DNA of 64,000 bases, from the NCBI RefSeq assembly GCF_029227855.1, contig NZ_CP074356.1; one strand, given 5' to 3'. This document shows, in pieces, positions 1 through 60,437 of this stretch. The notes under the pieces are model-generated. The model had not been told where the DNA came from and made no database searches. It worked only from the letters and a program-made list of their open reading frames with translations. Position 1 is the stretch's first letter. Every line of letters begins with the position of its first letter. The stretch is from Escherichia coli. Its GTDB lineage: Bacteria; Pseudomonadota; Gammaproteobacteria; Enterobacterales; Enterobacteriaceae. The position numbers and the translations under genes are program-made.

Positions 1-1697
1 TCGCGGTGCACCGTCGTCACCTGACCAAAACGGTCATGGTCATAGCGGGTTACATAACCGGAACAGTCGGTAAAGCTCAGCAACTGACCGTAACGGCTCC
101 ACGTCATGGTTTTCCGGCTGCCGGTGGCATCTTCCGTTGCGCAGGGGAAGTCACTGTGTGGATTATCATAACGGTAGCGGGTGATATCGCCGTCAGGGGC
201 GGTTTCCTGAATCAGACGGCCGGATTCATCATATTCCCGGCGCAATTCCAGCCCGTCAGGCCCGGTGGCTGACGTTAACTGGTTGTGGTGGTTATAGTAA
301 AATGCCGATGCCCTGCCATCCGGTGTGGTGATGCGCGTGATGAGGCCCGTCACCACATCCGGGCTGTACTCAGTCGTCCGGCCTGCGGCATCCGTCTGTG
401 CCTTAAGCCCGCCCACCGCGTCAAACTGACTCTGCGTGACGCTGCCGTCCGCGTGTTCCTTTTTCACCATCCGCTTCAGCCCGCCTTCGCCCTGCGTGTG
501 CAGCACTTCACGGCGGTCCAGACTGTCGGTGATGGTGATGCGGTCTTTCTCATACTGATACGTGTAGCTTAAGCCTGCCGGGTTTAGCTGTTCTGTCACC
601 CGCCCGTCGCTGTCGTAACGGTAACGGATATCCGGCCGGCCCGTGTGACGGTGCGCCACCATCCGGCCCCGGTATTTATCATCGTAAGTAAAGCTGCGCA
701 CCTGTGTATTGCTGCGGTCATACACCGCCGCCAGTTCGCCGCGTGGCGTCCAGCCATAGCGCACCAGCGGCGCGGCAGGTAAATTCTCCGGGTATTCCGG
801 GTCGTGCGTCAGCCACACGGCAGACAGACGGATGCCGTTGTCCCGGCCATATTCGGTGTAACCCGGCAGGGTATCAGGAAAAACGGACGGTTCCGTCCCG
901 CCGGAAGAGGCCTGCTGCCGGGCTTCTTCTGCCCGCTGCGCCTGCGTGGTCAGTACCAGCCGGAAGTGACGCCCGGCACCATCCGTCACGCCGGTGATTT
1001 CGCCGCTGAATTCACCGGCGGCTTCGCGGTGGAACGTCTGTGTGCGCCCGAAGCGGTCCACCAGCCCGGTCAGTACCCGGTACGGCGGCAGCGGCGCGGG
1101 CAGCACCTCATCCGCTTCCGGCACCCGCTCACACCAGCCGAGCAGCCACCACGGCCCCTGCGGACTGTTTGTCGCCAGATAACGATGCGGACTTAAGCGG
1201 AGTTCTTCCGGCAGCGCCTGCCAGAGTGCGGCCAGCCGGTGACCTTCATCCAGTTTCAGGACACCGCCGCGCACCAGCCAGAGTGACTCGCTGCGGCTGT
1301 AACCGTCCTCACCGGGAAACAGGTGCTCAAAATACAGGCTTCTGCCGCCGTTATCACTGAGTATCAGTGTGTTATCGCGCAGCTGTAAGCGGATATCCGC
1401 AGGCATTTTCCAGCCGGGGCCGAGGCTCCCCACCGGCGCGGGCGTTTTTGTCCGGTAACTGCTGTAGGTGCGGGAGAGGATGAACGGCAGCGGGCCGGGC
1501 AGGGCAAGGTCGGTTTCGCCGGGAAGGACCTTCGCGCCGAGCAGCGGATTGACCGGATGGCCGGACGTCACCCCGCCGGGGCACACCGAACAGGCCACGC
1601 CGGTGGGGGCACCGATGCGCACCCCGGCTGAACCCTGGACAATGCTACCGCCATACTGCGTCATGTCGCCCTGACGCGCCGCCGGTTTTCCACTCAT
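1..1697 (-). CDS. rhsC: Rhs-family polymorphic toxin core protein, N-terminal ~565 codons; gene continues beyond window position 1
   Basis: Reverse-complement translation from the ATG at 1697-1695 reads MSGKPAARQGDMTQYGGSIVQGSAGVRIGAPTGVACSVCPGG... in one open frame to the window edge. Matches my recollection of the RhsC N-terminus. Absent from the ORF track because there is no stop codon inside the window. Confidence 0.85.
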   Translation of the reverse strand, partial: MSGKPAARQGDMTQYGGSIVQGSAGVRIGAPTGVACSVCPGGVTSGHPVNPLLGAKVLPGETDLALPGPLPFILSRTYSSYRTKTPAPVGSLGPGWKMPADIRLQLRDNTLILSDNGGRSLYFEHLFPGEDGYSRSESLWLVRGGVLKLDEGHRLAALWQALPEELRLSPHRYLATNSPQGPWWLLGWCERVPEADEVLPAPLPPYRVLTGLVDRFGRTQTFHREAAGEFSGEITGVTDGAGRHFRLVLTTQAQRAEEARQQASSGGTEPSVFPDTLPGYTEYGRDNGIRLSAVWLTHDPEYPENLPAAPLVRYGWTPRGELAAVYDRSNTQVRSFTYDDKYRGRMVAHRHTGRPDIRYRYDSDGRVTEQLNPAGLSYTYQYEKDRITITDSLDRREVLHTQGEGGLKRMVKKEHADGSVTQSQFDAVGGLKAQTDAAGRTTEYSPDVVTGLITRITTPDGRASAFYYNHHNQLTSATGPDGLELRREYDESGRLIQETAPDGDITRYRYDNPHSDFPCATEDATGSRKTMTWSRYGQLLSFTDCSGYVTRYDHDRFGQVTTVHR

Positions 1698-1883
1698 CTG
1701 CTCATCCTTGTTTTATCGGGTTATTTGTCTGCTGACAGGCGAAACCCTACAGATTTATAAGAAAGCCTTAAGTGAGATATCTGTCAGATAAGAACAATTA
1801 GGAAAATATTTATATATATTTCATGAATATATATTTCGGTTGGGTAATGCGATGTATAAATACTTACCTGAACGTCTTCCCGA

Positions 1884-1926
1884 CAAAAAAACCGCCAGCG
1901 TTTCCGCTGGCGGTTTTCTTTTCTTT
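1884..1926. terminator. Bidirectional intrinsic terminator between ybfA and rhsC
   Basis: Perfect 10-bp stem accgccagcg / cgctggcggt with loop tttc, flanked by an A-run upstream and a T-run downstream. Confidence 0.7.
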
Positions 1927-1944
1927 GAACGTAATATTTAGCAA

Positions 1945-2151
1945 TCAGTAAAAATCACCAGTTGCCTTTTCTGCCTGATCCATCCACACCGGTTTCTCGC
2001 TGGTTTTCGACCAGACGCGGTGCAGGTAGCTGTAAAAGCGGGCGCGGTCTTTCCAGAAAAGCATGAAAGGCAGCGCCAGAACGCCCGCTGCAACCGCATA
2101 AGTACGGCGTAAAAAGATAAGCCATGCAGGATATTCTCTGTAGAGTTCCAT
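1945..2151 (-). CDS. ybfA: Small membrane protein YbfA (68 aa)
   Basis: ORF track 68 aa [23 protein letters not shown]...; position next to kdp and rhsC as in E. coli. Confidence 0.85.
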
Positions 2152-2360
2152 ACTTTTCTCCCCCTTTTGTATCTACCCGGTGAATGGCACCGGAAAAATG
2201 AATTTGTTTATCTGATGAAAATAGTACCGCCTTTTGTGTAATTTTACTACTCATCCGACCACTTATTTTTGCTTATTGATGGTTTATTTACATTCATCGT
2301 GTAATTAAGTTACACAAAAGTTAAATTAATACTAACCATCAGTTAAATCATGGCTTTTGC

Positions 2361-2384
2361 CATTTTTATACTTTTTTTACATCC
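2361..2384 (+). promoter_or_regulatory. KdpE-binding site of the kdpFABC promoter
   Basis: Sequence catttttatactttttttacatcc, a T-rich element I recall as the KdpE operator upstream of kdpF. Confidence 0.6.
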
Positions 2385-2463
2385 CGCCCGAAGATTTTTG
2401 CGAAATCTTTGCAGCCAGAATTCTACCCTTCCGGTATCACTTTTAGGCCACTGGAGGTGCACT

Positions 2464-2553
2464 GTGAGTGCAGGCGTGATAGCCGGCGTGTTGCTGGTGT
2501 TTTTATTACTGGGTTATCTGGTTTATGCCCTGATCAATGCGGAGGCGTTCTGA
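2464..2553 (+). CDS. kdpF: KdpF, 29-aa stabilising subunit of the Kdp K+-ATPase
   Basis: GTG start at 2464; translation [29 protein letters not shown]; stop TGA overlaps the kdpA ATG (tgATGg). Confidence 0.85.
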
Positions 2554-4226
2554 TGGCTGCGCAAGGGTTCTTACTGATTGCCACGTTTTTACTGGTGTTA
2601 ATGGTGCTGGCACGTCCTTTAGGCAGCGGGCTGGCGCGGCTGATTAATGACATACCTCTTCCCGGTACAGCGGGTGTTGAACGCGTACTTTTTCGTTTAC
2701 CTGGCGTCTCTGACAGTGAGATGAACTGGAAGCAGTATCTCTGTGCCATTCTCGGCCTGAACATGCTGGGGCTGGCGGTGCTGTTTTTTATGTTGCTCGG
2801 TCAGCGCTATCTGCCGCTTAATCCACAGCAGTTGCCAGGGCTGTCATGGGATCTGGCGCTGAATACCGCCGTCAGCTTTGTCACCAATACCAACTGGCAA
2901 TCTTATAACGGTGAAACCACGTTGAGCTATTTCAGCCAGATGGCGGGCTTAACGGTGCAAAACTTTCTTTCTGCCGCCAGCGGGATTGCGGTGATTTTTG
3001 CCCTCATTCGTGCATTTACCCGCCAGAGCATGAGCACACTCGGGAATGCCTGGGTCGATCTGCTACGCATCACGTTATGGGTGCTAGTCCCTGTGGCGTT
3101 GTTGATCGCACTGTTTTTTATTCAACAAGGTGCACTGCAAAACTTTCTGCCCTATCAGGCGGTGAATACCGTTGAAGGAGCGAAACAGCTGTTACCAATG
3201 GGTCCGGTGGCTTCTCAGGACGCGATCAAGATGCTCGGCACTAACGGCGGTGGTTTCTTTAATGCCAACTCGTCGCATCCGTTTGAAAACCCAACCGCAC
3301 TGACCAACTTCGTGCAGATGCTGGCGATCTTCTTGATCCCAACAGCGCTGTGCTTTGCCTTTGGTGAAGTGGCGGGCGATCGCCGCCAGGGGCGCATGTT
3401 GCTGTGGGCGATGTCAGTGATTTTTGTCATCTGCGTAGGCGTGGTGATGTGGGCAGAAGTTCAGGGTAATCCTCATCTGCTGGCACTGGGCGCGGACAGC
3501 AGCATCAATATGGAAGGTAAAGAGAGCCGTTTCGGCGTGCTGGTCAGTAGCCTGTTTGCGGTCGTGACTACGGCGGCTTCCTGTGGCGCGGTGATTGCGA
3601 TGCATGATTCGTTTACCGCTCTCGGTGGCATGGTGCCGATGTGGCTGATGCAAATTGGTGAAGTGGTGTTCGGCGGTGTCGGTTCTGGTCTTTACGGCAT
3701 GATGCTGTTTGTCCTGCTGGCGGTGTTTATTGCCGGGCTGATGATTGGTCGTACACCGGAATATCTGGGTAAAAAAATCGACGTACGTGAGATGAAACTG
3801 ACTGCACTGGCGATTCTGGTTACTCCAACACTTGTGCTGATGGGCGCGGCGTTGGCGATGATGACCGACGCCGGACGTAGCGCCATGCTCAACCCTGGCC
3901 CGCATGGTTTTAGCGAAGTGCTGTACGCCGTGTCATCCGCCGCTAACAACAACGGAAGCGCCTTTGCCGGATTAAGCGCCAACTCTCCATTCTGGAACTG
4001 TTTACTGGCGTTCTGCATGTTTGTCGGTCGCTTCGGGGTGATTATCCCGGTGATGGCAATTGCCGGTTCGCTGGTGAGTAAAAAGAGCCAACCCGCCAGC
4101 TCCGGCACGCTGCCAACGCACGGCCCGCTGTTTGTTGGCCTGTTAATCGGCACCGTATTGCTGGTTGGCGCACTGACCTTTATCCCTGCCCTGGCGCTTG
4201 GTCCGGTGGCGGAATATCTCTCCTGA
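2553..4226 (+). CDS. kdpA: Potassium-transporting ATPase subunit A (557 aa)
   Basis: In-frame ATG at 2553 within ORF 2409..4226; [33 protein letters not shown]... matches KdpA; K-12 length 557 aa. Confidence 0.95.
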
Positions 4227-9555: not shown

Positions 9556-10229
9556 CAAACGTTCTGATTGTTGAAGATGAACAGGCTATTCGTCGCTTTC
9601 TGCGCACGGCGCTGGAGGGCGACGGGATGCGCGTCTATGAGGCCGAAACGCTGCAACGCGGCTTGCTGGAAGCGGCTACCCGTAAGCCAGATTTGATTAT
9701 TCTCGATCTCGGCCTGCCCGATGGTGATGGGATTGAGTTTATCCGCGACCTGCGCCAGTGGAGCGCAGTGCCAGTGATTGTGCTTTCCGCACGCAGCGAA
9801 GAGAGCGACAAAATCGCCGCGCTGGATGCCGGAGCGGATGATTACCTGAGTAAGCCGTTTGGCATTGGCGAATTGCAGGCCCGTCTGCGCGTCGCTTTAC
9901 GCCGCCACTCCGCCACCACCGCGCCCGATCCGCTGGTGAAATTTTCCGATGTTACCGTCGATTTAGCAGCTCGTGTGATCCATCGCGGTGAGGAAGAGGT
10001 GCATCTCACCCCGATTGAGTTCCGCCTGCTGGCGGTGCTGCTGAATAACGCCGGGAAAGTGCTCACCCAGCGCCAGCTCCTTAACCAAGTGTGGGGGCCA
10101 AACGCGGTCGAACACAGTCATTATTTGCGTATTTATATGGGACATCTGCGACAAAAACTGGAGCAAGATCCCGCCCGCCCCCGCCACTTCATTACTGAAA
10201 CCGGTATTGGGTATCGGTTTATGCTTTAG
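9552..10229 (+). CDS. kdpE: Response regulator KdpE (225 aa)
   Basis: ORF track 225 aa [17 protein letters not shown]... OmpR-family; start overlaps kdpD stop (ATGA). Confidence 0.95.
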   Translation: MTNVLIVEDEQAIRRFLRTALEGDGMRVYEAETLQRGLLEAATRKPDLIILDLGLPDGDGIEFIRDLRQWSAVPVIVLSARSEESDKIAALDAGADDYLSKPFGIGELQARLRVALRRHSATTAPDPLVKFSDVTVDLAARVIHRGEEEVHLTPIEFRLLAVLLNNAGKVLTQRQLLNQVWGPNAVEHSHYLRIYMGHLRQKLEQDPARPRHFITETGIGYRFML

Positions 10230-10242
10230 GCGGTTAAATGCT

Positions 10243-10328
10243 GGATCCGGCATGAACGCCTTATCCGACCTACACATCGTCCCGTAGGCATGATAAGACG
10301 CGTCAGCGTCGCATCAGGCATGGCACTC
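10243..10328. repeat. REP/BIME-type palindromic repeats in the kdpE-ybfP spacer
   Basis: ggatccggcatgaacgccttatccgacctaca and gtaggcatgataagacgcgtcagcgtcgcatcaggca are typical REP units. Confidence 0.65.
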
Positions 10329-10340
10329 ATCGCGATATGT

Positions 10341-15527: not shown

Positions 15528-15599
15528 TCAAGAGCAAATTCTGTCACTTCTCCTAATGAAGTGAACCGCTTAGTAACAGGACAGATTCCGCATGACTGA
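15513..15599 (+). CDS. uof: Uof, 28-codon leader peptide translationally coupled to fur
   Basis: ATG at 15513 to TGA at 15597-15599 (MIRIISRANSVTSPNEVNRLVTGQIPHD); overlaps the fur start by 8 nt. Confidence 0.75.
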   Translation: MIRIISRANSVTSPNEVNRLVTGQIPHD

Positions 15600-16038
15600 T
15601 AACAATACCGCCCTAAAGAAAGCTGGCCTGAAAGTAACACTTCCTCGCTTGAAAATCCTGGAAGTTCTTCAGGAGCCGGACAACCATCACGTCAGTGCGG
15701 AAGATTTATACAAACGTCTGATCGATATGGGTGAAGAAATTGGTCTGGCTACGGTATATCGCGTACTGAACCAGTTTGACGACGCTGGTATCGTCACCCG
15801 CCACAATTTTGAAGGCGGTAAATCCGTATTTGAACTGACACAGCAACATCACCACGATCACCTGATCTGCCTCGACTGCGGCAAGGTAATCGAATTTAGT
15901 GATGATTCCATCGAAGCGCGTCAGCGTGAAATTGCCGCAAAACATGGCATTCGCCTGACTAACCACAGTCTCTATCTTTACGGTCACTGTGCCGAAGGCG
16001 ATTGCCGCGAAGATGAGCACGCGCACGAAGGCAAATAA
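15592..16038 (+). CDS. fur: Ferric uptake regulator Fur (148 aa)
   Basis: ORF track 148 aa MTDNNTALKKAGLKVTLPRLKILEVLQEPDNHHVSAEDLY... identical in form to E. coli Fur. Confidence 0.97.
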   Translation: MTDNNTALKKAGLKVTLPRLKILEVLQEPDNHHVSAEDLYKRLIDMGEEIGLATVYRVLNQFDDAGIVTRHNFEGGKSVFELTQQHHHDHLICLDCGKVIEFSDDSIEARQREIAAKHGIRLTNHSLYLYGHCAEGDCREDEHAHEGK

Positions 16039-16094: not shown

Positions 16095-16812
16095 AATAAA
16101 TATCCTCCGGCATAGCCGGAGGTTTTTCAAATGCGCCTATAAGGCTCTCTTACCAGCCGCGCCCTAACAGGCGCACACGATCTGACATTTGCATCCAACT
16201 TCGTTACTTACGGCCCGTAAACGGGCTGCCCGGATAGGGAATCGATAACTGCTCTCCCATTTTATCCTCTTCAAGCTGGTGCTTTATGTAATCCTGTATC
16301 TTCGCCGTGTTCTTACCCACCGTATCGACGTAGTACCCTCTGCACCAGAACTCCCTGTTCCTGTATTTGAATTTCAAATCACCAAACTGCTCGTAAAGCA
16401 TCAGACTGCTTTTCCCTTTCAGATATCCCATAAAGCCGGATACGCTCATTTTGGGCGGGATCTCCACAAGCATATGGATATGATCTGCACAGCATTCAGC
16501 TTCCAGAATCCGTACACTTTTCCACTCACACAGCTTTCTCAAAATACTGCCTATTGCTCTACGCTTCTCTCTGTAGAACACCTGTCTTCGGTATTTTGGC
16601 GCAAAAACTATGTGATATTTACAGTTCCATCGGGTGTGCGCTAAGCTCTTTTCGTTCCCCATTGGGACCCCCTTTTGATTTCTTGTTTGACACTTGCAGT
16701 TGCCAGACCGCAAGGTGTTTTAACAAATCAAAAGGGGTTTTAATAACTGGCTTAAAGCTGAAAGCTTTCCGGAACCCCCAGCCTAGCTGGGGGTTTTCTG
16801 TGCACAAGAAAA
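16095..16812 (-). mobile_element. IS200: IS200 insertion sequence (about 0.71 kb; IS200/IS605 family), boundaries +/- 15 bp
   Basis: Contains the 152-aa HUH/Y1 transposase gene, a perfect subterminal palindrome cccccagc-cta-gctggggg (16775-16793) upstream of tnpA, and a second hairpin cctccggc-ata-gccggagg (16104-16122) near the other end. The fur-chiQ spacer is about 0.7 kb longer than I recall for K-12. Confidence 0.85.
16204..16662 (-). CDS. tnpA: IS200 transposase TnpA (152 aa)
   Basis: ORF 16204..16713; start at MGNEKSLAHTRWNCKYHIVFAPKYRR...; HUH motif HIHMLVEI and catalytic-Tyr region YYVDTVG. Confidence 0.92.
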   Translation of the reverse strand: MGNEKSLAHTRWNCKYHIVFAPKYRRQVFYREKRRAIGSILRKLCEWKSVRILEAECCADHIHMLVEIPPKMSVSGFMGYLKGKSSLMLYEQFGDLKFKYRNREFWCRGYYVDTVGKNTAKIQDYIKHQLEEDKMGEQLSIPYPGSPFTGRK

Positions 16813-37412: not shown

Positions 37413-37735
37413 GATAACAAAATTCCCCTATCCAACTTTGGCACATCTATTGCTTTGTTATACAAGGCAAAGCTTGAACCAGCATCAGTACAACCCGGTT
37501 GCACCACAGCAATCCACGGGTAGCACCAAAAGAGTGCATTTTAAGAATTTTGCTTCGGAATGGTGCGGCGCATCTCGCAAAAACAAACAATAAAACAGCA
37601 ATATCTTTACATTTAACCAAACTAAATGTTACCTAACAGGCACAACACTGCACAATAAAGTTGCAGACGATAACAACACAAACACTCACAACAGGTATCC
37701 ATGCGTTCTTAACGCAGAAGATAAAGGAGTTGGAT

Positions 37736-42006: not shown

Positions 42007-42050
42007 TCACTCGCCGGATGACATCACGCCATCCGGCACCACTCATTTCA

Positions 42051-57336: not shown

Positions 57337-58302
57337 ATGAGTAAACCCATTGTGATGGAACGCGGTGTTAAATACCGCGATGCCGATAAGATGGCCCTTA
57401 TCCCGGTTAAAAACGTGGCAACAGAGCGCGAAGCCCTGCTGCGCAAGCCGGAATGGATGAAAATCAAGCTTCCAGCGGACTCTACACGTATCCAGGGCAT
57501 CAAAGCGGCAATGCGCAAAAATGGCCTGCATTCTGTCTGCGAGGAAGCCTCCTGCCCTAACCTGGCGGAATGCTTCAACCACGGCACAGCAACGTTTATG
57601 ATCCTCGGCGCTATTTGTACCCGCCGTTGTCCGTTCTGTGACGTTGCCCACGGTCGCCCGGTAGCTCCGGATGCCAATGAACCAGTGAAACTGGCGCAGA
57701 CCATTGCCGATATGGCGCTGCGTTATGTGGTTATCACCTCCGTTGACCGTGATGACCTGCGCGATGGCGGTGCCCAGCACTTTGCGGATTGCATTACTGC
57801 CATTCGGGAAAAAAGCCCGCAAATCAAAATTGAAACTCTGGTGCCGGATTTCCGCGGTCGTATGGATCGTGCTCTGGATATTCTAACCGCCACACCACCA
57901 GATGTGTTCAACCATAACCTGGAAAACGTACCGCGTATTTACCGTCAGGTACGGCCTGGTGCAGATTACAACTGGTCGCTGAAGCTGCTGGAACGCTTTA
58001 AAGAAGCGCATCCGGAAATCCCGACCAAGTCTGGTCTGATGGTGGGTCTGGGTGAAACCAATGAAGAAATTATTGAGGTAATGCGCGACCTGCGCCGTCA
58101 TGGTGTGACGATGTTAACGCTGGGGCAATATTTGCAGCCAAGCCGCCATCACCTGCCGGTTCAACGTTACGTTAGCCCGGATGAGTTCGACGAAATGAAA
58201 GCCGAAGCGCTGGCGATGGGCTTTACCCATGCTGCATGCGGTCCGTTTGTCCGCTCGTCTTACCACGCCGATTTGCAGGCGAAAGGGATGGAAGTTAAGT
58301 AA
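57337..58302 (+). CDS. lipA: Lipoyl synthase, radical SAM (321 aa)
   Basis: ORF track 321 aa [26 protein letters not shown]...; cysteine motifs CPNLAEC and CTRRCPFC. Confidence 0.97.
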
Positions 58303-58332
58303 TCCTGTAATAATTACTTACATCTGTCTGAT

Positions 58333-58364
58333 AAAAAACCCGCTTTTTGAAGCGGGTTTTTTTG
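58333..58364. terminator. Bidirectional terminator between convergent lipA and tatE
   Basis: aaaaaacccgct-ttttgaa-gcgggttttttt. Confidence 0.75.
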
Positions 58365-58403
58365 TATCGAACAAGATATTGAGGGAGCGTCCTGCTCGCC
58401 ACG

Positions 58404-58607
58404 TCACTCTTTATGAGAGAGCTTTTCAGCCTGAAGATCAACGTCTGCGCCTTTTTTCGCCGCAGCATCGTCATCATTCATCGCCTTCTTGAACCCTTTA
58501 ATGGCCGCTCCAAGGTCTCCGCCCAGCGTACGTAACTTCTTAGTCCCAAACAGCAGAACGACCAGCGCCGCAACTACCAGCAGTTTGGTAATACTAATCT
58601 CACCCAT
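58404..58607 (-). CDS. tatE: Sec-independent translocase component TatE (67 aa)
   Basis: ORF track 67 aa [43 protein letters not shown]... Confidence 0.95.
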
Positions 58608-58735
58608 AGATACCTTCTTGACATATAACCGGCAACAGAACGCGCCTTAAAAACCAGAGAATATTAACGGTCATTCGACGCGCGCACACAATAGCAATCT
58701 GTAACAAGGTGAATCAAGCGCCGAGTAAAAAAACA

Positions 58736-59530
58736 TCATAATAATTGCGGCGGCGCAAAGCGACGGTTGTTTAAGACGGGCAGTTGCGCGCGCACCTGAC
58801 GCACACGTTCGGGCGTCACTTCCGCCATAATGAGTGCAGGCATTTCTGACGCTGCCGCAATGGTGACGCCAAAGGGATCTATAATCCGGCTTTGCCCGAT
58901 ATTTTTGTTCCCGCACTCCCCCGCCGCCACCATATAACAGGTGGTATCCAGCGCACGAGCGGCAAGCAACGTTGACCAGTGATGCTCTTTGAGCGGCCCA
59001 CGAACCCAGGCGGCAGGAAGTACCAGGATTTCAGCTCCCTGTAATGCCTGTGCCAGCGCCAGCTCTGGAAAGCGTAAGTCATAACAGGTCATCAGACCGA
59101 CCTTCATCCCTTCCACCTCCAGTAACGGAGCTATTTCATTACCAGCATCAACATGGCGTGATTCCTGAATGGCAAATGCATCATAGAGATGCAGTTTGGC
59201 ATAACGGGCGACGATGTTTCCTGCCTGTAGCGCCACCAGCATATTCCATGCGCGCCCCGGCGTTGAAGGAACATGAATCGTCAGAATTGTCGTCATCATG
59301 TTACGTTTACTTTCTCGCCGTAAACGTCCGAGGAATTCGCCTTCCAGCAGCTGTGCTGATTTAACCGATAGATCTGCATCATGATCATCACGCGCCAACA
59401 ATGCTTCCGGCAGGACAAACAGCGAAACGTCGTTTTCCGCCGCCTGCGCCATCAACGAGGCACAAATCTCAGCGTTCTTTTCCCACACAGATGTAACAGC
59501 AAACTGTCCTGCAGCAACCAGCATTGCCAC
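58736..59530 (-). CDS. ybeM: Carbon-nitrogen hydrolase (nitrilase superfamily, omega-amidase-like) YbeM; intact 264-aa reading frame
   Basis: ORF track 264 aa [33 protein letters not shown]...; lies between tatE and crcB. Confidence 0.8.
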
Positions 59531-59616
59531 CTCCTGTCAGAGTCGTAAAATTCGCCAACGACGATTATTCGGCGTTACACTTATCACTCATACAAATCAA
59601 ATAGCAGGATTTTGCA

Positions 59617-60000
59617 GTGTTACAACTTCTTTTAGCAGTTTTTATTGGCGGTGGTACGGGAAGCGTGGCGAGATGGCTGTTAAGTATGCGATTTAACCCG
59701 CTGCATCAGGCGATTCCGTTGGGGACGCTGGCTGCAAACCTGATTGGGGCATTCATCATAGGAATGGGATTCGCCTGGTTTAGCAGGATGACGAACATTG
59801 ATCCAGTGTGGAAAGTATTAATCACCACCGGATTTTGTGGCGGTCTAACAACCTTCTCAACATTTTCGGCAGAAGTAGTGTTTTTGTTACAAGAGGGCCG
59901 CTTAGGCTGGGCGTTACTGAACGTTTTCGTCAACCTTTTGGGGTCTTTTGCCATGACCGCACTGGCTTTCTGGCTGTTTTCCGCCTCAACCGCACACTAA
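59617..60000 (+). CDS. crcB: Fluoride channel Fluc/CrcB (127 aa)
   Basis: ORF track 127 aa [29 protein letters not shown]...; two TM-hairpin halves with [10 protein letters not shown]. Confidence 0.95.
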
Positions 60001-60004
60001 AGAC

Positions 60005-60036
60005 CAAAAAAAACCCGCTGATTAAGCGGGTTTTGA
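60005..60036. terminator. Bidirectional terminator between convergent crcB and cspE
   Basis: aaaaaaaacccgct-gattaa-gcgggtttt. Confidence 0.75.
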
Positions 60037-60053
60037 ATTCTTGCTGACGTATC

Positions 60054-60263
60054 TTACAGAGCGATTACGTTTGCAGCAGAAGGGCCTTTGGCACCGTTAG
60101 TGATTTCGAACTCTACGCGCTGACCTTCAGCAAGAGTTTTAAAACCATTAGTCTGGATTGCAGAGAAGTGTACAAACACGTCTTTGCTGCCGTCTTCCGG
60201 AGTAATGAAACCGAATCCTTTGGACTCATTAAACCACTTAACGTTACCTTTAATCTTAGACAT
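60054..60263 (-). CDS. cspE: Cold-shock-domain protein CspE (69 aa)
   Basis: ORF 60054..60347; start at [37 protein letters not shown]... (RNP1/RNP2 motifs). Confidence 0.96.
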
Positions 60264-60437
60264 CAAAATTACCTTTACATGAAAAATAGACACAAATGCT
60301 GTGTCGGTTACCAGTACACCAATTGTGGTACGCTTTGTCCAGTGCAACTTTACTAAAAAGTGATAAAAGTCGCGTTATTTTTGATGTTAATTATTTTACC
60401 CATTGATTTTAAAGAGTTTACTAAAATTTCATTTGTC

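Follow-up and report, generated by a model that had tools for sequence, protein, structure and literature searches.

Does ybeM, which is annotated as a pseudogene in the K-12 reference genome, survive as a working gene on contig NZ_CP074356.1 of E. coli assembly GCF_029227855.1, which enzyme would it encode, and is its state peculiar to this strain? We addressed these questions in a stretch of 64,000 nt from this contig (the window). A sequence-only reading of the same DNA had taken ybeM to be disrupted in K-12 and proposed, on that condition, that this strain keeps a functional omega-amidase-like carbon–nitrogen hydrolase that K-12 lacks, naming as checks an alignment with MG1655 ybeM and a search for the CN_hydrolase domain and its Glu-Lys-Cys triad. 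Our analysis indicates that the frame is very probably the ordinary functional ybeM of E. coli, coding for a 262-aa cytoplasmic thiol amidase of the Nit1 branch that would hydrolyse deaminated glutathione (dGSH), and that the K-12 lineage is without this enzyme through the deletion of a single base, nt 200 of the coding sequence. The gene, its name, its pseudogene status in K-12 and the biochemical role of its family are already known from databases and the literature. Mildly new is only our estimate that the K-12 frameshift haplotype circulates naturally, in ∼16% of complete E. coli genomes.

The reading frame and its neighbourhood

The ORF listing of the window contains an open frame of 264 codons on the minus strand (58736–59530) that begins with GTG. 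Its translation includes the catalytic-Cys motif cited in the sequence-only reading. Described earlier as an uninterrupted 264-codon ORF, the frame is indeed open, and its length as a gene needs correction. The GTG overlaps the Shine–Dalgarno motif GGAGG, as can be read from the minus-strand sequence upstream of ybeM (...CTGACAGGAGGTGGCAATG), and in strain 118UI, whose DNA is 100% identical here, RefSeq annotates a CDS of 789 bp (262 aa plus stop) that begins at the ATG; ybeM therefore has 262 codons, and 264 describes the maximal ORF only. The GTG at 59530 was accordingly rejected as the true start, which is most likely the ATG at 59524 (Table 1). In CFT073, where the allele is intact, the annotated ybeM CDS is of equal length (789 bp). 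The proper annotation for the window is deaminated glutathione amidase, 58736–59524, minus strand.

The surrounding gene order (lipA, tatE, ybeM, crcB, cspE, pagP) is the same as in other E. coli. The 118UI gene (RefSeq WP_001305561.1) does not differ in any respect: its DNA is identical over 1,101 bp, it too codes for 262 aa, and its neighbours are again crcB, tatE and lipA. Both the crcB–ybeM–tatE–lipA synteny and the complete DNA identity thus mark this as the orthologous locus.

Table 1. Position, strand and supporting evidence of ybeM, its sites and its neighbours in the window
Feature	Position	Strand	Evidence
ybeM CDS, 262 aa + TGA stop, deaminated glutathione amidase (Nit1-type carbon–nitrogen hydrolase)	58736..59524	-	ORF; Pfam PF00795; NCBIfam NF033621; same 789-bp CDS in 118UI and CFT073
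Codons GTG-GCA, by which the maximal 264-codon ORF exceeds the CDS, probably untranslated	59525..59530	-	GTG overlaps Shine–Dalgarno; RefSeq CDS begins at ATG
Shine–Dalgarno GGAGG; spacing to the downstream ATG (59524), 5 nt	59530..59534	-	read from sequence
Codon GAA, Glu40, catalytic base	59405..59407	-	aligns to NitFhit Glu54 in LPE
G at CDS nt 200, Arg67 codon CGT, context GGAC[G]TTTAC; present in the window, deleted in MG1655	59325..59325	-	alignments; junction census
Codon AAA, Lys110 of the triad	59195..59197	-	aligns to NitFhit Lys127 in KLHL (YbeM AKLHL)
Codon TGT, Cys147, catalytic nucleophile	59084..59086	-	aligns to NitFhit Cys169
Codon GAG, Glu154 in CYDLRFPE, second conserved Glu of the nitrilase superfamily	59063..59065	-	RFPE kept in all aligned solved homologues
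tatE, downstream neighbour, 128-bp gap	58404..58607	-	ORF; annotation of identical DNA
crcB (fluoride channel), divergent; shares a 92-bp intergenic region with ybeM	59617..60000	+	ORF; annotation
lipA, neighbour	57337..58302	+	ORF; annotation

A single-base deletion in K-12

The view that ybeM is disrupted in K-12 was borne out. MG1655 has the gene (b4581) at 658031–658818, between crcB and tatE, where it is annotated as a 788-bp pseudogene, one base shorter than the 789 bp of the window gene. The two share locus, synteny and ∼98.5% DNA identity, and their pairwise alignment contains one 1-bp deletion, no other indel and 12 substitutions. At the corresponding site the window reads GGACGTTTAC (59320–59329, minus strand), and the K-12-type junction, in which GGAC is joined directly to TTTAC, is not there. 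The K-12 allele encodes 66 correct residues followed by LYGEKVNVT and a stop, a product of 75 aa without Lys110 and Cys147. As the remainder of the K-12 gene is open in the shifted frame, the 1-bp deletion is the sole lesion; reinsertion of the G would leave only three residues (V33A, V37A and H124R) at which the K-12 and window proteins differ. The K-12 pseudogene has been used as a neutral site for chromosomal insertions (PMC7242477).

Distribution of intact and disrupted alleles in E. coli

The ybeM locus was found in 5,424 of 5,426 complete E. coli genomes. The K-12 deletion junction, queried as the 61 nt that span it at ≥99% identity, which at such a length means an exact match, was present in 860 of 5,423 complete genomes (∼16%), and the intact 62-nt junction of the window matched exactly in 3,592. 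Genomes that matched neither query retained, among the matches listed, all 62 nt of the span and differed by at least one substitution, which is consistent with an intact junction and nearby SNPs. Intact ybeM is the majority state of E. coli, and there is nothing special about the source strain in this respect. The suggestion that this strain keeps what K-12 lacks is thus true of the comparison with K-12 and does not hold as a peculiarity of the strain.

Among intact alleles, most of the changes are synonymous: the window gene differs from that of CFT073 by nine synonymous and two non-synonymous changes, and from that of strain B1 by three and one, respectively, which is consistent with purifying selection. 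A 3-bp length difference in strain B1, considered as a difference inside ybeM, was rejected as such, the CDS there still being 789 bp and the extra bases lying in the ybeM–crcB intergenic region. In the O166:H15 strain JNE21-003, ybeM has been independently split by the IS21-family element ISEc62 (istA-istB; locus 781–3698). PGAP still annotates the 5′ fragment in this strain, 726 bp long, as a CDS for 'deaminated glutathione amidase'. With a frameshift in ∼16% of genomes and an IS insertion in at least one strain, the gene is evidently dispensable.

Family assignment and catalytic residues

A search with the Pfam CN_hydrolase profile (PF00795) gave a full-length match to YbeM (profile positions 2–255 of 256; 141.4 bits against a gathering score of 23.2; E = 4.3e-41), and because this match runs from end to end, the ybeM frame is not a chance ORF. 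At the subfamily level, the NCBIfam model NF033621 (deaminated glutathione amidase, de_GSH_amidase) matched over positions 2–260 of 260 with 451.5 bits, above its curated cutoff of 355, and the PGAP product name for the identical gene is likewise 'deaminated glutathione amidase'. Several further CN-hydrolase models of NCBIfam gave weak matches. In a sequence search against solved structures, the best homologue was the worm NitFhit protein (1EMS, E = 1.7e-29). Together with yeast Nit2 (4H5U, E = 1.1e-26), which also belongs to the Nit1 branch, it outranked the omega-amidases mouse Nit2 (2W1V, E = 4.4e-22) and yeast Nit3 (1F89, E = 6.4e-20).

The Glu-Lys-Cys triad is complete, as the sequence-only reading had anticipated: E40, K110 and C147 of YbeM correspond to E54, K127 and C169 of NitFhit. 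Indeed, both the triad and the CYD[LIV]RFPE motif of eukaryotic Nit1 (1EMS; yeast Nit2 4H5U/4HG3) align with YbeM, and Cys147 (TCYD) falls on the Cys of the ICYD motif in NitFhit as well as in yeast Nit2, a position at which chain 4HGD of yeast Nit2 has Ser. In other respects the eukaryotic proteins differ from YbeM. Their sequences are substantially diverged, the worm protein is fused to an Fhit part that YbeM does not have, and yeast Nit2 carries an insertion of ∼20 residues near query position 209 that is missing from the shorter bacterial protein.

Proposed function and its loss in K-12

The substrate of the Nit1/YbeM family is reportedly dGSH; eukaryotic Nit1 is described as a dGSH amidase, and the E. 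coli homologues are said to be good dGSH amidases as well. From this family biochemistry and the NCBIfam and PGAP names, YbeM of the window probably has dGSH amidase activity, with dGSH as its likely substrate. Chemically N-(4-oxoglutaryl)-Cys-Gly, dGSH would be formed as a useless by-product of transaminases acting on glutathione, and YbeM would serve metabolite repair by hydrolysing it to 2-oxoglutarate and Cys-Gly (EC 3.5.1.128). By homology within the superfamily, Cys147 may attack the amide carbonyl, upon which Cys-Gly would depart and a thioester acyl-enzyme would form. Glu40 is the putative general base in this scheme, and Lys110 together with Glu154 would stabilise the tetrahedral intermediates. 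Hydrolysis of the thioester by water would finally release 2-oxoglutarate. The nt-200 deletion is predicted to end translation at residue 75, before Lys110 and Cys147 are reached, and would thereby leave K-12 and the related natural lineage without the enzyme.

K-12 is in this respect an incomplete reference for E. coli metabolism, being without a Nit1-type amidase for metabolite repair that the majority of E. coli retain, and pathway models and knockout collections based on K-12 will miss the dGSH amidase activity.

Regulation and intergenic sequences

In the UPEC strain CFT073, an NsrR ChIP-seq peak is located 345 bp from the start of ybeM, at a site that had been seen earlier in K-12, and the change recorded for ybeM under NO stress was 0.30-fold (PMC5320621). 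Our scan of 58350–59750 for promoters and terminators returned counts no higher than those in shuffled sequence and nothing usable for ybeM. On the plus strand, the sigma-70-like site TTGCCA-16-TAAAAT (59524–59551), of a kind no commoner than in shuffled sequence, could serve crcB. A search of the 92-bp ybeM–crcB intergenic region (59531–59616) for a fluoride riboswitch or other structured RNA gave no Rfam match at E ≤ 0.1, so there is no fluoride riboswitch ahead of crcB in the window. The same spacer contains 3 extra bases in some strains.

Two neighbouring regions gave Rfam matches. The cspE leader and gene (60006–60364, minus strand) match the cspA thermoregulator (RF01766) over the whole model (1–428 of 428) with 119 bits against a gathering score of 78. 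In the lipA–tatE intergenic region (58230–58430), Leu_leader, Trp_leader and rsmX models matched on both strands with 27–30 bits, below the gathering score; these weak matches most likely stem from a terminator hairpin that acts in both directions, and not from the RNAs named.

Alternative explanations

YbeM could instead be a general omega-amidase of the Nit2/YafV type, acting on 2-oxoglutaramate or 2-oxosuccinamate, or some other amidase or nitrilase, and dGSH would then not be its physiological substrate. Nit1 and Nit2 are paralogues, and dGSH is 2-oxoglutaramate N-substituted with Cys-Gly. YbeM has the superfamily fold and triad in common with YafV and the mammalian Nit2 omega-amidase, the weak matches to other CN-hydrolase models would fit such an activity, and the name 'omega-amidase-like' had already been chosen on first inspection. 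We nevertheless consider this explanation quite improbable, as far as an omega-amidase is concerned on several grounds: the YafV-type amidohydrolase/omega-amidase model NF007757 scores 61.5 bits and does not pass its cutoff of 249, whereas NF033621 clears its own; YbeM is a separate paralogue with 30% identity to K-12 YafV over 166 aa; E. coli already has yafV; and the solved structures nearest in sequence belong to the Nit1 branch. In line with this division, a figure legend in one paper identifies YbeM with NIT1 and YafV with NIT2, and a citing paper attributes the 2-oxoglutaramate amidase function of YafV to Peracchi et al. 2017. The label 'omega-amidase-like' is therefore loosely right. 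The omega-amidase proper of E. coli is YafV. The yafV gene is intact in K-12, where it is annotated as 2-oxoglutaramate amidase, and what K-12 is without is specifically the dGSH amidase, not an omega-amidase.

K-12 carries several laboratory-acquired lesions at other loci, and its ybeM 'pseudogene' might likewise be an artefact of sequencing or of laboratory domestication, in which case K-12 and the source strain would not truly differ. This has virtually no chance of being right and is already refuted, since 860 complete genomes, assembled independently of one another, carry the exact junction. Among them are a human stool isolate from Mozambique (strain 300709) and a pig isolate from Japan (JP538), in each of which ybeM is annotated as 'frameshifted' (732–1519 in each extracted locus). 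These isolates share 10 of the 12 substitutions linked to the K-12 allele, and the deleted G is not part of any homopolymer run, which makes repeated slippage or a basecalling error a poor explanation. Shared linked SNPs in wild isolates and the sequence context of the deleted base together indicate that the frameshift probably arose once and was inherited by descent or recombination. As for the open frame, it could belong to a gene that is silent or decaying in the source strain, given that ybeM is dispensable in ∼16% of genomes and IS-disrupted in another, and that no sigma-70-like site was found on the ybeM strand within 58350–59750. That scan, however, was a crude consensus match and provides no evidence of absence. 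Intact catalytic residues throughout, a strong Shine–Dalgarno motif at ideal spacing, the excess of synonymous over non-synonymous changes among intact alleles and the differential expression of the intact allele in CFT073 all speak against silence or decay, which we regard as very unlikely. The single-origin, circulating haplotype could also be taken to mean that loss of dGSH repair was selectively favoured, not merely tolerated, in one commensal lineage. We give this idea a small chance; if it were correct, strains like the source strain, paired with K-12, would provide a natural system for determining what bacterial dGSH repair is worth.

Further differences between the window and MG1655

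Apart from ybeM, the window differs from MG1655 at several sites. At 42013–42050, where rihA and ybeL almost adjoin, it is missing ∼8 kb of MG1655 (675501–683471), comprising ybeQ, ybeR, djlB, ybeT, ybeU, djlC and hscC. The IS5D copy that MG1655 carries between gltI and lnt (687851–689045) is missing at ∼37632–37636. At 10227–10336, ∼110 bp stand in place of the ∼5.1 kb of MG1655 (715910–721058) that hold speFL, speF, potE, ybfI and ybfG, so the operon for the inducible ornithine decarboxylase and putrescine antiporter is absent at this site. The adjoining 138-bp segment (10090–10227) aligns with the K-12 interval at each of its edges, with 88% identity at the second. Conversely, ∼700 bp (16100–16806) between fur (15592–16038) and chiQ are without an MG1655 counterpart and correspond to IS200C, an element with an IS200/IS605-family tnpA (ORF 16204–16713, minus strand) of which a single genome of other E. 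coli may hold as many as 36 copies.
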